DNA of 64,000 nucleotides from Escherichia coli (GCF_003018255.1 NZ_CP027440.1), one strand, 5' to 3'; counted from the stretch's first letter, positions 27,948 through 63,653 are shown. The notes: generated by a model not told the origin, from the sequence alone. Numbers and translations are program-made.

Positions 27948-28955
27948 ATGGCAATTTATACCCGAACAGGTGATTCAGGAAGTACGTCTTTATTTACCGG
28001 ACAGCGCGTCAGCAAAACTCATCTACGTGTCGAAACCTATGGCACGCTGGATGAACTGAACGCGACACTCAGTCTGTGTTATTGCGCCACCGCCATCGAA
28101 AGCCATCGCATCTTACTGGAAGCCATTCAACAACAGATATTTTGGTTTTGCGCCGAACTCGCCAGTGAAAGCGAACAGCCGTCAGCGCAGCAGCGTTACA
28201 TCGGTACGGAAGAAATTGCCGCGCTGGAAAACGCGATCGATAGCGCAATGAACGCCGCCCCCCCGGTTCACAGCTTCATTCTGCCTGGTCGATGTGAAGC
28301 TGCAAGCCGCATGCATTTCGCCCGCACGGTGGCTCGACGGGCTGAAAGACGTCTGGTTGAACTGACAACAGAAACCACCGTCCGGAATGTTTTGCTGCAC
28401 TATATCAACCGACTTTCCGATTGCCTGTATGCCCTCGCCCGCGTGGAAGACAACGTTGCTCATCAAAACCTGATGATTCAGGAAATCACAAAACGTTATC
28501 ACGAAGCCAACCACACACCAGCATTGAAGGAACGCACAATGCCGCTCACTTTTCAGGATCTTCACCAGCTCATTCGTAGTGCGGCAATGCGCGCAGATGA
28601 ACTGCATATTCCCGTTGTCATCAGCATTGTCGATGCCAACGGAACAGAAAGTGTTACCTGGCGGATGCCTGATGCCCTGTTGGTCAGCAGTGAACTGGCA
28701 CCGAAAAAAGCCTGGACCGCCGTGGCGATGAAAACGGCAACCCACAAACTTGCTGATACCGTGCAACCCGGCGCGCCGCTTTACGGGCTCGAAAGCCATA
28801 TGCAAGGCAAAGTCGTCACTTTTGGTGGCGGCTTCCCCCTCTGGCGTGACGGAAAATTGCTTGGCGGGCTTGGCATCAGCGGCGGTAGCGTTGAACAAGA
28901 CATGGATATTGCCCAAAGCGCAATGGCGGCAATTAACGTGGGAGTAAACCAATGA
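27948..28955 (+). CDS. pduO: Corrinoid adenosyltransferase PduO
   Basis: 335 aa; PduO-type ATP:cob(I)alamin adenosyltransferase N-domain. Confidence 0.9.
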   Translation: MAIYTRTGDSGSTSLFTGQRVSKTHLRVETYGTLDELNATLSLCYCATAIESHRILLEAIQQQIFWFCAELASESEQPSAQQRYIGTEEIAALENAIDSAMNAAPPVHSFILPGRCEAASRMHFARTVARRAERRLVELTTETTVRNVLLHYINRLSDCLYALARVEDNVAHQNLMIQEITKRYHEANHTPALKERTMPLTFQDLHQLIRSAAMRADELHIPVVISIVDANGTESVTWRMPDALLVSSELAPKKAWTAVAMKTATHKLADTVQPGAPLYGLESHMQGKVVTFGGGFPLWRDGKLLGGLGISGGSVEQDMDIAQSAMAAINVGVNQ

Positions 28956-58152: not shown

Positions 58153-59049
58153 TTATCTCACTCTTTTTTTAAAATGGTTTTCATAAACTTTTTGCTTCAA
58201 ATATATAATGCCAGGGAACGCTCTTTTGAGTAGCAACTTAGTTGCAAATAATGTCCAGTATTGTTTTTTTGCTATAAAAGAAAATATAATTTTAATTTTT
58301 AAACATCTTAACATCATTAACCTAAACAGGTTATAATTCTTTGTATCATTGTACATTATATTCTTATATTTAAAATAATACTTCCGATATGCCACATAAT
58401 CTTTAATATTCTTGGTTATTCTAACACCTTCATGAGAAATATCCATATAGTAAGTATTAGCGTTTAACCTCCTGGCACTCCCATAAACTTGAATAAGTTT
58501 AGTCCAAACATCTTGATCTTGTAACCGTTTAAAATCAATAGAAAATCCTCCAACTGATAACAAACGCTCTCGCTCAACTAAAATCTGGTTACCAGCTTCA
58601 TTTTCCTTGAGTATACTTTGTAAATCAATGATACATTCTCTTTGAAATCGTGCATGATTATTTGTTCCAGTCACTATTATATAGTTATCGCAGATAAAGG
58701 AAAATTCCTTGTTATAATGATTAACCAGAATCTGTAACCTATCTTCTTTGAAATAATCATCATCATCCAACCCTGTAATGAAGAAACCTTTTGCATGCTT
58801 TAATCCTCTATTTCTAGAAAAATTAGCCCCCATATTTCTTGGGTTTTTCTTATATATAAAATTCTTAATATTTGGTGTTGCTACTTCTTGCAATTCTTTT
58901 ACAATCAAGTCAACTTCATAACTAGAGTTATCATCGACTACGATTAATTCTATTTTTGAATAAGTTTGATTAAATACTGATAATATTGCTCTGCGCAACA
59001 GCAAAGGGCGATTATAAGATGTTATAAGAACGCTTACTAATTTTTCCAT
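58153..59049 (-). CDS. Glycosyltransferase family 2
   Basis: GT-A motif VSVLITSYNRP...IVVDDNS; probable start MEKLVSV, with the listed ORF extended. Confidence 0.8.
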   Translation of the reverse strand: MEKLVSVLITSYNRPLLLRRAILSVFNQTYSKIELIVVDDNSSYEVDLIVKELQEVATPNIKNFIYKKNPRNMGANFSRNRGLKHAKGFFITGLDDDDYFKEDRLQILVNHYNKEFSFICDNYIIVTGTNNHARFQRECIIDLQSILKENEAGNQILVERERLLSVGGFSIDFKRLQDQDVWTKLIQVYGSARRLNANTYYMDISHEGVRITKNIKDYVAYRKYYFKYKNIMYNDTKNYNLFRLMMLRCLKIKIIFSFIAKKQYWTLFATKLLLKRAFPGIIYLKQKVYENHFKKRVR

Positions 59050-60407
59050 TTCTTTTTCAAAACCATCAACAAAGTAATTATAACCAAAGAATAGATCCAC
59101 AGCGGGAATATGCCATTAAGCCCTGCTCTTGGTAAAAAGCCTATCCTATATGCTGTTATAACTGATAATGCAGTAATATAAAGCCCCTTAGAGTTACCTC
59201 TATTTTCTGCTAAACTTAAAAACACCCCAAATAAGCAAGCAACAATAATCATAGCTCCAACATTTTTATTACACAGCAAAACTATATCATTGACAAAACT
59301 CCAGCCAACACCATAACCACTTTTGAATAACGCTGGATTTAATAAATCGGATAGATACGCAGAAGAGCTATTGTATAATATAGTGTGTTCTGCAAACATG
59401 TTATATATAGCATTAGCTCCAGGGATAAAGTTTTGAGCTAATAAATAGCCAGGAAAATTATCTATATATTTAGTGAAATAGATGACATGTAATGTCACTC
59501 CTTGTTGAAATAAGAATGAGAAGTAATGTTCGAACAAATTTATATTTGAATTACTATAATCCGCTCTAAATAATAACAATGTTTGGGAGAAAACTATAGC
59601 AATACCACCTATTATAACTAACCTAAGGAGGGGTATTTTCTTAATGTACTTATTTCTATACCAAAGATAAAATAAAAAGAATGATAATAATGGACCTCGC
59701 TGACCGATAAAAGCCAACATTAAAGAGTTCATCAATAAAACGCACAGATAAAAATTAGTGTTCTTTTTATTGTCAGTTGATATTGATATAGACAAAAAAA
59801 CAGTCGCTATCGTAATTCCTAAAGAATAAAGATTTGGTATAATACTTCCTTTCTCCAATAATTCTAAATTTTTTGTATAAAATGAAAGATATCCGCCTGA
59901 ATTTACTGCCTCTAAACCTGAATATATATATGGAAAAACAAGGCAACCGACCAAAAATAAAACTGGTCCATTAGGCAACCTCAGATTATATGTTACTACA
60001 TTGACGTTTTTATTCTTATTTTCAATACACTGAGTAAAAAAATACCCTAAAAGAATTGAATATATTATTATCCCAATCGTCAATAACAAATTCACAGAAT
60101 CAAGTGAACTTATAGTCGTGGTATAAAAAAGCGTTACTGTATAGTAATCCATTTCAGAGTATAATAAATATGAAAATATGCGCCCAAAAATAAATATACT
60201 TATTGTCATTATAAAAAGCGATATTATGCTTAGTACCCCTGATAAAAGTGCCGTTTGTAAATATGCAAATGCTATAAATAAAAAACAACTTATTGCTAAT
60301 GTGTAATAGTCAACACTAACAAAACCGGCCTCATTTAATAAATAACCAACAATAAAAAAGGCAATAATAATAGAATCGACGAATACTATTATCGCAGAAT
60401 TATTCAT
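59037..60407 (-). CDS. wzy: O-antigen polymerase Wzy
   Basis: 456-aa very hydrophobic, AT-rich polytopic protein with about 10-12 TM segments, typical of Wzy. Confidence 0.7.
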   Translation of the reverse strand: MNNSAIIVFVDSIIIAFFIVGYLLNEAGFVSVDYYTLAISCFLFIAFAYLQTALLSGVLSIISLFIMTISIFIFGRIFSYLLYSEMDYYTVTLFYTTTISSLDSVNLLLTIGIIIYSILLGYFFTQCIENKNKNVNVVTYNLRLPNGPVLFLVGCLVFPYIYSGLEAVNSGGYLSFYTKNLELLEKGSIIPNLYSLGITIATVFLSISISTDNKKNTNFYLCVLLMNSLMLAFIGQRGPLLSFFLFYLWYRNKYIKKIPLLRLVIIGGIAIVFSQTLLLFRADYSNSNINLFEHYFSFLFQQGVTLHVIYFTKYIDNFPGYLLAQNFIPGANAIYNMFAEHTILYNSSSAYLSDLLNPALFKSGYGVGWSFVNDIVLLCNKNVGAMIIVACLFGVFLSLAENRGNSKGLYITALSVITAYRIGFLPRAGLNGIFPLWIYSLVIITLLMVLKKKWKN

Positions 60408-61177
60408 TTTATTTTTTCCATAAAAAATATCATAAGCCGATAAACAAAGTAGTATAAAGACATTACCATTATTAATAGACTAAGCTCAGAAAGGCTATTT
60501 AAGTATACACATAATGAGGTAAAAAAAATAAAAAGATAATAGCGGCATCTTAACAATGAATGATTTTTAAATAACTCTCGCTGAAAATAATACAACTCAA
60601 ATCTTTTCTCACCACACCTCTCGATCACATTTATAATTGAGAAACATATTGTAAATATTATTATGCTACGCAAATCCCCTGTACAAACAACTAATGGTGA
60701 AGAGTACCTGATTGTAACTAATATAAAATGCAATAAAAGATTTAATCGATTTCTTATTGAATTATATATCGCATACATCGGGATAAGTAACCATGGATAC
60801 CAGAGAAACTCTCCACCTAACTTGTAAACACAAAAAGTGACAACAACAGATACAAATAATCTAAAGATATATATTGTCTTTTTATTACCCTCATAATAGC
60901 GTATTTCTTTTTCAGAAAGCCGCAGAGTAGGTTTTATTTCTTTTTTTATTGTTTCTGCATCATTGTAGATATATCCTAATTCATACAGATTATATGTTAG
61001 TACTATAGTTAATCCCAGTTGCCCCCATAACTCAACACTCTCTTTAGTGCTTTCAAATAAAAAAAACAGCAACAAAACTGGAAATAGATAAATTAGGCAC
61101 CAAGAAATTGTTTTAGCACGCGTTTTAGTTCTTGTTTCAATAAAATATAAAAATGGGATATAAAATTTGCACCACAT
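60404..61177 (-). CDS. Polytopic membrane protein of unknown function (O-antigen cluster)
   Basis: 257-aa hydrophobic protein; start overlaps the stop of the upstream gene by 1 nt (translationally coupled). A weak NDxxTxxxE segment resembles but does not match the UbiA-family NDxxDxxxD motif. Confidence 0.5.
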   Translation of the reverse strand: MWCKFYIPFLYFIETRTKTRAKTISWCLIYLFPVLLLFFLFESTKESVELWGQLGLTIVLTYNLYELGYIYNDAETIKKEIKPTLRLSEKEIRYYEGNKKTIYIFRLFVSVVVTFCVYKLGGEFLWYPWLLIPMYAIYNSIRNRLNLLLHFILVTIRYSSPLVVCTGDLRSIIIFTICFSIINVIERCGEKRFELYYFQRELFKNHSLLRCRYYLFIFFTSLCVYLNSLSELSLLIMVMSLYYFVYRLMIFFMEKIK

Positions 61178-61178
61178 A

Positions 61179-61784
61179 CTACACCTTAATTATTTTTTCA
61201 ATGCCATTTCTTACCCAATAAACAACTGCTTTTTTATTATTAGCCACAGCTATGGCCACATCGCATTTTTTCATCATATTAAGATCACCAAAATTATCAC
61301 TTATCATTGTGAATGATTTATTAACATCACTAATTATATTTATAATATTTTCCTTATTATTTAATAAATCCACTTTTATCTTCCCAGTTGCAACACTATC
61401 AAGATAATCCAAGCAAGTAGCATAAAAACCATTATAGTTAAGTTCTGAATAAAACTCTTCCGCGATGAAATCAAGCGTTGCTGAAACTATATATATCTCA
61501 TCAAAATCTTCCTTTTCAATTAAATTTAATACCGCGTCATTATAATGGCATTCTTTCACAAATATTTTAGCTTGTTTTCGCAGTATAGTTTTGGGAACAC
61601 CTTTAAGTTTTGCTATTGCCCAGCGCCTTAAAAGATCAAATTTCGTGAATTTATAAATTAAATATAAAGAAATAAAAATAAGAGATTTCCTTCTGACATA
61701 ATCAAATCGTTCAAGAAAAGCAAAAGTCGTATTTTCTTTAACCAAAGATCCACATAGATCCAATAATAGAATTTTTTTCTTCAT
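61179..61784 (-). CDS. HAD-superfamily hydrolase-like protein (O-antigen cluster)
   Basis: 201 aa; N-terminal LLLDLCGSL resembles HAD motif I (DxDG[TS]L) but has Cys at the Asp+2 position. Confidence 0.5.
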   Translation of the reverse strand: MKKKILLLDLCGSLVKENTTFAFLERFDYVRRKSLIFISLYLIYKFTKFDLLRRWAIAKLKGVPKTILRKQAKIFVKECHYNDAVLNLIEKEDFDEIYIVSATLDFIAEEFYSELNYNGFYATCLDYLDSVATGKIKVDLLNNKENIINIISDVNKSFTMISDNFGDLNMMKKCDVAIAVANNKKAVVYWVRNGIEKIIKV

Positions 61785-62599
61785 TTGCGTAAGAACTGAT
61801 TATAGATAGATGATAATAATTGTTTAGGTAATAGCCTGACTAATGAACGACCTAAAAATATTAATTTTGCACTTACCCCTTTATTAATGCCTAAATCAAC
61901 AATAAGTTTATAAAGTTCATATTCACTTTTGATATATTTTAATCCTTTTCTTCTATTGATCATTTCTTCGCCGGCACGTGCTAAAACTAATACATCATTA
62001 ACATTATCCATAGCGAAACCTGCGGCATAACAACGAAGCCACAAGTTATAGTCTTCCATAAGATAATGGTGGTTATAACCACCAATCTCAATAATTTTTT
62101 GTTTTCTAAACATTACAGTCATGTGATTAAAAGGATTTCGTTTTGCTATTGTTTTACTAATATTATCATAACCACATGGTACTTTTTTTAATTTACGTAT
62201 ATTGTTTTTTTCTGTAAACTCATCAACTGCCCCGCCAATTATTACTAATTCCGGATTACGAATAAACATCTTTATTTGTTTTTCGAATCGCTCAGGTAGA
62301 CAAATGTCATCAGTATCCATTCGTGCGACCAAATCATTCGAACATGCCTGTAGGCCAGCATTTAATGCCTTACCTAATCCAACATTCTCATTGAGTTCAA
62401 CTATTTTTAAAGGCAATTCTCTATCCCATTTTCTAACTACTCTCCATAATCCATTACTGATCGGACCGTCAATAACTGCAACTACTTCATCGATCATTGT
62501 TTTTTGTATCGCAAGACTTTTAAATGCCTCATCAAGATAAATTTCGTTTTCTTTAAAATATATAGATAATAAAACTGATATTTTTTCTATCTTTTGCAC
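61781..62599 (-). CDS. Glycosyltransferase family 2 (first gene of the O-antigen operon)
   Basis: 272 aa; GT-A-like N-terminus ISVLLSIYF...; the only in-frame start is a GTG at 62597-62599 that lies inside the ops element; contains a DTDD motif. Confidence 0.7.
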   Translation of the reverse strand: MQKIEKISVLLSIYFKENEIYLDEAFKSLAIQKTMIDEVVAVIDGPISNGLWRVVRKWDRELPLKIVELNENVGLGKALNAGLQACSNDLVARMDTDDICLPERFEKQIKMFIRNPELVIIGGAVDEFTEKNNIRKLKKVPCGYDNISKTIAKRNPFNHMTVMFRKQKIIEIGGYNHHYLMEDYNLWLRCYAAGFAMDNVNDVLVLARAGEEMINRRKGLKYIKSEYELYKLIVDLGINKGVSAKLIFLGRSLVRLLPKQLLSSIYNQFLRK

Positions 62600-62635
62600 G
62601 CTACCGCCCTTGGCTTAACAGCTACCAACACACTC
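62597..62635 (-). promoter_or_regulatory. JUMPstart element with ops (RfaH recruitment) site
   Basis: Minus-strand GGTAGCTGTTAAGCCAAGGGCGGTAGCGTG; exact 12-bp ops GGCGGTAGCGTG at 62597-62608. Confidence 0.85.
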
Positions 62636-62759
62636 AAAAACCAATGCCACATTATTTAAATACTTGTTAATATTTAAAAAACTAAGACGATAATGAGAAA
62701 ATGCTTCATAATTTTCATACTACCGCCTATTTCCGCTATTAAACTAACGCAAATCTTAC

Positions 62760-63653
62760 TTATTTTAGCAAAGTATCTTCAATAGCTTTACGGAACTTCG
62801 CCCCTTCTTTCAGGTTGCGTAATCCATACTTCACAAACGCCTGCATATAGCCCATTTTTTTACCACAGTCGTAGCTGTCACCAGTCATCAGCATGGCATC
62901 AACGGACTGTTTTTTCGCCAGTTCGGCAATAGCATCAGTCAGCTGAATACGCCCCCATGCACCAGGTTGAGTGCGTTCAAGTTCCGGCCAAATATCGGCA
63001 GAAAGCACATAGCGACCAACGGCCATGATGTCTGAGTCCAGCGTCTGCGGCTGATCCGGTTTTTCGATAAATTCGACGATGCGGCTGACTTTACCTTCGC
63101 GATCCAGTGGTTCTTTGGTCTGGATGACGGAGTATTCAGAGAGGTCACCCGGCATACGTTTTGCCAGCACCTGACTGCGGCCCGTTTCGTTGAAGCGCGC
63201 AATCATGGCAGCAAGGTTGTAGCGCAGCGGGTCGGCGCTGGCGTCGTCGATCACTACGTCTGGCAGTACCACGACAAATGGGTTGTCACCAATGGCAGGT
63301 CGCGCACATAAAATGGAGTGGCCTAAACCTAAAGGTTCACCCTGACGCACGTTCATAATGGTCACGCCCGGCGGACAGATAGATTGTACTTCCGCCAACA
63401 GTTGACGCTTCACGCGCTGCTCAAGGAGAGATTCTAATTCATAAGAGGTGTCGAAGTGGTTTTCGACCGCGTTCTTGGACGCGTGAGTTACCAGGAGGAT
63501 TTCTTTGATCCCTGCAGCCACAATCTCGTCAACAATGTACTGAATCATTGGCTTGTCGACGATCGGTAGCATCTCTTTGGGAATCGCCTTAGTGGCAGGC
63601 AACATATGCATCCCAAGACCTGCTACCGGTATAACTGCTTTTAAATTCGTCAT
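62760..63653 (-). CDS. galF: UTP--glucose-1-phosphate uridylyltransferase-like regulatory subunit
   Basis: 297 aa ([30 protein letters not shown]...). Confidence 0.92.

Follow-up and report, generated by a model that had tools for sequence, protein, structure and literature searches.

An Escherichia coli O185-type O-antigen cluster in which the ops element ends in the probable start codon of the first gene

The locus and its genes

The DNA analysed here, called the window in what follows, is a single stretch of 64,000 nucleotides from Escherichia coli (NZ_CP027440.1). Towards its end, and read throughout on the minus strand, lie galF, the conserved gene that precedes the O-antigen cluster (62760-63653), an AT-rich spacer of 124 nt that separates the galF stop from the next feature (62636-62759), a JUMPstart element of 39 nt (62597-62635) and a first O-antigen gene coding for a glycosyltransferase of 272 residues (61781-62599). 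The identity of galF comes from the list of open reading frames and from its homologue in the O185 strain MB10, to which PGAP gives that name. Six complete E. coli genomes, MB10 included, match this region at 98.8% identity, while over 11.3 kb the window and MB10 are 97.9% identical; the polymerase and the flippase of MB10 are both named 'O185 family' by PGAP. Judged by sequence, the locus is the head of an E. coli O185-type O-antigen gene cluster.

The side of galF differs from what is usual in such clusters. From the galF stop to the first base of ops there are 151 nt, where most galF-linked clusters have about 285 nt. Compared with the O127 and LP5-1 clusters, the spacer between galF and JUMPstart is some 110-130 nt shorter, and about 100 nt that directly follow galF in these two clusters are missing from the window; short galF-to-ops spacers are also present in three other clusters (L181, L182 and L195). 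Within the spacer, a consensus scan pointed to a candidate sigma-70 promoter (TTTAAA, 16 nt, AATAAT; 62651-62678, minus strand; 9 of 12 matches) which, if used, would start transcription about 45 nt before the ops pause. Promoter and terminator scans of the leader region returned weak consensus matches only, and the three sigma-70-like sites found, against 1.6 expected after shuffling, are not above chance. Base composition marks a sharper boundary: GC content is 0.51 in galF, 0.56 in JUMPstart and 0.31 in the first gene, and the switch falls exactly at the end of ops. Since GC content drops from 0.56 to 0.31 at that point, this suggests that the serogroup-specific, low-GC DNA was joined immediately at the ops 3' end.

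Homologues, profiles and PDB chains all place the first gene product among the GT2 glycosyltransferases of the GT-A fold, in the vicinity of EpsE, AmsE and WbbD. Its homologues carry PF00535, its N-terminal strand and helix can be aligned with theirs, and the acidic, DxD-type motif MDTDD of the window protein aligns with MDADD in a paralogue. Matches to specific equivalogs (EpsE, TuaG, WcaE and others) stay below threshold, the best of them, EpsE, reaching 96 bits for an NCBIfam cut-off of 450, and the gene is assigned at the level of the GT2 family only. The protein belongs to a protein cluster of 77 members.

Two further genes follow closely. The second codes for a HAD-IB phosphatase (61179-61784, minus strand), and directly after it comes a third, coding for a polytopic membrane protein of 257 residues (60404-61177, minus strand) that has no match in Pfam or NCBIfam. 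This protein has 25 detectable homologues, every named one of which is called hypothetical, and an invariant motif, YE.GYI.ND...E; in E. coli MB10 and a15 the open reading frame is left unannotated by PGAP. Its AlphaFold model is a confident one (mean pLDDT 93.9). The structures closest to it, a membrane phosphoribosyltransferase of mycobacteria (8j8k/8j8j) and UbiA (4tq3), are only weakly similar, with TM scores of 0.46-0.53 and Foldseek E values above 0.1. The O185 antigen contains D-ribofuranose, for which the precursor genes were reported not to be found (PMC7685785), and a fused HAD-UbiA enzyme is known to make polyprenyl-phosphate ribofuranose (PMC11127046). Given this sugar and this precedent, it is plausible that the phosphatase and the membrane protein together form a split, highly divergent polyprenyl-phosphate ribofuranose synthase. 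The same pair makes up the first two genes of another E. coli cluster type, here called the L131 type, which is considered below. Further down lies a second GT2 gene (58153-59100, minus strand). The longest frame opens at a GTG at 59100, which gives 315 residues and shares 64 nt with the end of wzy; for the MB10 homologue PGAP chose a start 17 codons further in (298 residues), and NCBIfam alignments, which begin at residues 16-23, fit this shorter form.

The JUMPstart/ops element and its terminal GTG

Read from 62635 to 62597 on the minus strand, the 39-mer is GAGTGTGTTGGTAGCTGTTAAGCCAAGGGCGGTAGCGTG. The Rfam model RF01707 matches these coordinates at 56.1 bits (gathering score 35, E=3.9e-12), from position 1 to position 38 of its 38 positions. 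A consensus was built from 119 other JUMPstart sites, out of at least 120 listed, and the window copy was compared against it: 33 of 39 positions agree, the range for individual sites being 30-39. A fixed 39-mer consensus, searched in the window with up to three mismatches, gave no match, owing to the variability of the element in its 5' third. The element ends in ops, GGCGGTAGCGTG, at 62608-62597, the only exact copy in the 64-kb window. The first-pass annotation had reported an exact 12-bp ops inside a JUMPstart-like 39-mer on the minus strand, and both the exact match and the Rfam hit, at identical coordinates, bear it out. The site conforms to the 12-nt GGCGGTAGnnTG: both the bases at its centre through which RfaH is contacted and the T11-G12 dinucleotide at which RNA polymerase pauses are present, the base requirements described for ops (PMC5995543). 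When one mismatch is allowed, the window holds a single further match, GGCGGTAGCGTT, at 28881-28892 on the plus strand, for a chance expectation of 0.15. It sits near the 3' end of an open reading frame of 335 residues (27948-28955), in the coding sequence GISGGSVEQDMD; lying within a coding frame and without JUMPstart context, it was dismissed as a second ops and is most likely due to chance.

The hairpin of JUMPstart RNA is also present. As placed by the structure line of the Rfam alignment, it extends over 62610-62628 (minus strand), with a stem of 5 bp in which the 5' arm UUGGU (62628-62624) pairs with the 3' arm GCCAA (62614-62610), where the family pairs its GGTAGC region with GCCAG. The outer pair is thus U-A in the window against C-G in most copies: among the 120 sites listed, 91 have C-G, 13 T-A, 12 T-G and 4 a non-pair, and 13 of the 15 listed sites with A at the outer position have the matching T. 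At ops positions 10-12, GTG is found in 113 and ATG in 6 of the 120 listed sites. Finally, galF precedes the element and the cluster's first gene follows it, all three on one strand. By every sequence feature compared the element is a member of the JUMPstart/ops family, with a single exception: it is not confined to an untranslated leader, its final 3 nt being the start codon of the first gene.

That start codon is a GTG at 62597-62599, that is, ops positions 10-12. An in-frame TAA within JUMPstart (62617-62615) closes the frame five codons before it, and it is the sole ATG, GTG or TTG from this TAA to codon 35, an ATG at 62497-62495. A downstream start would accordingly cost 34 N-terminal residues, one more than the 33 counted in the first-pass annotation. 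In nearly all of the best 120 homologues, of 264-283 residues, a conserved strand FSVLMSLYxKE lies 1-7 residues (rarely 15) from the methionine, and its counterpart in the window protein, ISVLLSIYFKE, occupies residues 7-17. NCBIfam alignments reach the N-terminus (EpsE, residues 6-238 to profile positions 2-233; TuaG, 3-237 to 4-232; PRK10073, 1-115 to 2-113), as do solved GT-A structures (3bcv, 2-100 to 2-97; 5tze, 6-105 to 2-101). A paralogous GT2 protein, 32% identical and coded by the first gene of a metagenomic cluster (L163) that has its own ATG, aligns by its residue 4 with residue 3 of the window protein, and its N-terminus is of the same length from that ATG as that of the window protein from the GTG. 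Starting at codon 35 would leave the GT-A fold without its first strand and helix. Because homologues, profiles and structures all align from the N-terminus, residues 1-34 must be translated and, codon 35 being the first canonical alternative, only the GTG can be the start. PGAP places the start of the MB10 homologue (WP_233131175.1, 819 nt) at the same GTG, and the alignment shows no difference between the two strains over a stretch that begins 35 nt before JUMPstart and runs through the first 57 nt of the gene. The earlier view that the GTG forming the last three bases of ops is the only usable in-frame start is thereby upheld by the upstream TAA, by the N-termini of the homologues and by PGAP, and we consider it highly probable that translation of the first gene begins there, even though GUG is a weaker start codon than AUG.

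Two other accounts of the gene's beginning have to be weighed against this one. The ribosome might use, in place of the GUG, a near-cognate AUA, at codon 4 (62590-62588) or codon 7 (62581-62579). Both codons precede the conserved first strand, so that the fold would be kept, and most of the best 120 homologues have only 2-3 residues ahead of that strand. However, AUA is a very poor start codon in E. coli, whereas the GUG is preceded by a predicted, correctly spaced Shine-Dalgarno-like pairing and gives the N-terminal length of the L163 paralogue, which makes an AUA start very unlikely. It could also be argued that the gene is a relic truncated at its 5' end, starting at Met35 or not at all, in which case the overlap would be the meaningless scar of a deletion. 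The short galF-to-ops spacer, 151 nt in place of the usual 285 nt or so, does suggest some rearrangement in the region. Against this, the frame is intact from the GTG, the conserved strand and helix with which the GT-A fold opens are encoded in its first 34 codons, and the first genes of the window and of MB10 differ by 6 synonymous and 0 non-synonymous changes. Moreover, the arrangement is kept in MB10, the region is found in five further complete genomes, the protein has its cluster of 77 members, and O185 is a serologically expressed antigen (PMC7685785). A relic is, to us, barely credible.

A Shine-Dalgarno-like stretch, AGGGCGGUA (62602-62610, minus strand), overlaps the 5' part of ops and is predicted to form with the 3' tail of 16S rRNA a duplex of -8.2 kcal/mol, equal to that of galF's own site; for the other five cluster genes the predicted duplexes are weaker, from -1.3 to -6.5 kcal/mol. 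In this pairing GGCGGU of ops acts as GGAGGU with one mismatch, ending 3 nt before the GUG, and is helped by an AGG further upstream. None of this is special to O185: the pairing belongs to every JUMPstart, the consensus giving -8.1 kcal/mol. Two bases of the stretch fall within the JUMPstart stem, and the fold predicted for the leader RNA is unremarkable (minimum free energy -15.6 kcal/mol, z-score -0.67), with no strong structure over the site. It had been proposed that the AAGGG of JUMPstart serves as the ribosome-binding site. The idea of a Shine-Dalgarno-like pairing survives as a prediction, centred on AGGGCGGUA of ops, while AAGGG itself is a variant of the stem. Its G-to-A change is the 3' partner of the outermost stem pair and covaries with the opposite base, so that it is best seen as a compensated stem variant. 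For this reason, and since the same variant occurs among the listed sites in JUMPstarts with distant start codons, AAGGG was rejected as an adaptation that would create a ribosome-binding site. To be sure, the genes controlled by RfaH are described as lacking canonical Shine-Dalgarno elements (PMC5995543), and the predicted pairing may, on that ground, be irrelevant in vivo.

From ops to the first gene in other clusters

JUMPstart is widespread. A megablast search found a near-identical core of 37 nt in 1130 E. coli genomes, and a more sensitive search found JUMPstart-like matches in 5425 of 5426, with a median of three places in each. The E. coli leaders controlled by RfaH (O-antigen rfb, waaQ, kps, colanic acid wza, hlyCABD) share with the O185 leader the same 39-nt element, the stem, the 12-nt ops, the orientation and the expected loading of RfaH at U11, and in the rfb leaders of O-antigen clusters JUMPstart has the same position after galF. 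The difference is in what follows: in these operons ops comes first and the start codon only after it, while in O185 the gap is -3. Annotated E. coli cases have gaps of 28 nt (kpsM), 37 nt (galE of O127), 60 nt (a cluster of the sialic-acid type) and 178 nt (wza); for hlyC the distance from ops to the gene is 634 bp (PMC6775461), and the working statement in the field is that the start lies 'within 100 nts downstream' (PMC11001881).

How unusual the overlap is was judged from several samples. In a scan for the JUMPstart core, limited to one genome per species and yielding at least 120 sites, the nearest possible start of a downstream open reading frame of at least 120 residues mostly lies about 20-200 nt after ops among the 120 sites listed. 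At four of these (L006, L031, L095 and L056) a long frame is open from the ops GTG itself. Chance read-through explains three of them: the true beginning of wzx in L006 is MSLIKN, 48 nt beyond ops, and in L031 and L095 the real GTG of waaQ comes some 45-50 nt after ops, all of these starts being backed by homology. The fourth, L056, the only true start at ops among the 120 listed sites, is a copy of the same O185 cluster. The shortest genuine gaps among these sites are 20-27 nt, each with a Shine-Dalgarno sequence of its own. In an evenly spaced sample of 60 E. coli genomes, a coding sequence on the same strand overlaps JUMPstart in the O185 genome only. Features annotated as 'hypothetical protein' under the JUMPstart of some E. 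coli were set aside as antisense mini-frames or pseudogenes of group-1 capsule loci.

The contig L056 is filed under a metagenome-assembled genome of Thomasclavelia, yet it carries the same O185 first gene. It is one of five places (L056, L021, L034, L062 and L078) in which an enterobacterial JUMPstart, together with polysaccharide genes, appears under the name of a non-enterobacterial genome or metagenome-assembled genome, the names being Thomasclavelia, Erysipelotrichia, Arthrobacter, Flavobacterium psychrophilum and Peptococcaceae. Contaminated or wrongly binned public assemblies are the likely reason.

A scan of metagenomes anchored on the 3' end of galF, which is unbiased with respect to JUMPstart, gave a view of the shorter gaps. 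Over its 70 distinct ops contexts the minimal gap has a median of 74 nt, and its lower tail comprises gaps of 5 (or 17), 9, 10, 10, 13, 18 and 19 nt. In the 5-nt case the start can be placed at either 5 or 17 nt after ops; of the N-termini that go with short gaps, those at 10 nt are both consistent with profile alignments, and the one at 9 nt had no family match. Five of these clusters (L177, L195, L163, L180 and L190) resemble O185 in that their first gene, wzx or a GT2 gene, starts only 5-13 nt after ops, and thus leaves no room for a separate Shine-Dalgarno sequence. They differ from it in having their own ATG outside ops, the ops GTG itself being used by the O185 type only. The notion that JUMPstart usually lies well upstream of the first gene thus agrees with the median of 74 nt, but has to be relaxed, since gaps of 5-13 nt recur.

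A different kind of overlap is seen in the L131 type of E. coli cluster, found in L131, L134 and L200. There, as in O185, JUMPstart and the first reading frame overlap; the element is genuine (Rfam, 49.9 bits) and lies within the first coding sequence annotated by PGAP (6343-7011 in L131, 544-1212 in L134, and likewise in L200). Unlike that of O185, its ops, GGCGGTAGCATT, is degenerate at position 12, and its first gene codes for a HAD phosphatase. Only two in-frame starts are available, an ATG 5 nt upstream of JUMPstart, which is the choice of PGAP, and a TTG made of ops positions 11-12 and the next base; in the coding sequence as annotated, JUMPstart itself encodes the N-terminal 14 residues. 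Annotation pipelines, then, sometimes put JUMPstart inside a coding sequence.

The comparison with the 5' regions of other O-antigen clusters, which the first-pass annotation had proposed as a check, therefore yields an overlap that is rare, matched among the 120 listed sites by a copy of the same cluster alone. It is the extreme, zero-spacer end of a natural continuum of gaps and not a singular oddity, while the O185 type is the only case found in which the canonical ops GTG would unambiguously be the start codon. No account of a start codon overlapped by ops or JUMPstart was found in the searchable literature, of which the coverage was incomplete.

Proposed RfaH recruitment and translation initiation at ops

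What is known of RfaH allows one to propose an order of events. RNA polymerase pauses with the 3' end of the RNA at U11 of ops, and a hairpin in the non-template strand recruits RfaH, the C-terminal domain of which then refolds and binds ribosomal protein S10 (PMC5995543, PMC11001881); the ribosome so coupled has been proposed to scan toward the start codon (PMC11001881). By match to ops, the expected U11 pause in the window is position 62598, which is the U of the GUG. We consider it probable (about 0.8) that the arrangement as a whole is an ordinary RfaH-dependent JUMPstart/ops leader of an O185-type operon, whose terminal GTG would start the GT2 gene. Transcription would begin within the 124-nt spacer between galF and JUMPstart, or arrive by read-through from galF. 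The polymerase would then pause at U11, and the ops hairpin of the non-template strand would recruit RfaH. At this stage the start codon would still be incomplete and the Shine-Dalgarno-like stretch only 10-14 nt behind the RNA 3' end, within the hybrid or the exit channel; with both still inside the polymerase, no ribosome could engage at the pause. After escape, AGGGCGGUAGC-GUG would emerge some 25-35 nt further on, and a 30S subunit would engage through the Shine-Dalgarno-like pairing, through the contact between RfaH-KOW and S10, or through both, and start at the GUG.

That RfaH recruitment and translation initiation are placed on the same bases, as the first-pass annotation had put it, is literally true of the letters, with the reservation that different molecules, DNA and mRNA, are involved at different times. 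Recruitment takes place on non-template DNA at the pause and initiation on mRNA later; for this reason no interference between them is expected. The only cost of the overlap is that the first codon and the bases of ops are locked together.

RfaH is thought to hand the ribosome over to mRNAs that have no normal ribosome-binding site, and in O185 nothing stands between ops and the start. Since this operon is natural, evidently functional and devoid of a spacer, it would appear that neither a spacer nor scanning is needed. The O185 layout could in this way serve as a minimal native template for ribosome loading by RfaH, in which the question of spacer and scanning becomes directly testable. For O-antigen biology, it is an ordinary leader element before an ordinary glycosyltransferase.

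A more general view would see in JUMPstart a built-in translation initiation region, with AGGGGCGGU or GGGCGGU as Shine-Dalgarno-like sequence and the GUG of ops as start, used in every leader controlled by RfaH: ribosomes tethered to RfaH would translate a short leader frame and then reach the first gene, which in O185 alone would be fused directly to the site. Several observations speak in its favour, beginning with the pairing of -8.1 kcal/mol, which is the same in the consensus JUMPstart, and with the GTG (113) or ATG (6) of positions 10-12 in the 120 listed sites. If the O185 glycosyltransferase is made, such a site must work at least in O185, and the end of the leader frame in L008 overlaps the first gene by ATGA. 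However, among the listed sites the frames opened from the NTG of ops have the same length in all three phases (medians of 10, 12 and 10 codons), which lends no support to a conserved leader peptide with the ops GTG as its start, and the TG of positions 11-12 already has an explanation, as the dinucleotide of the pause (PMC5995543). We hold this general view to be unlikely. Were it true, it would explain at what site and by what means ribosomes are captured past ops, in a field that has no settled account of where they are loaded (PMC11001881).
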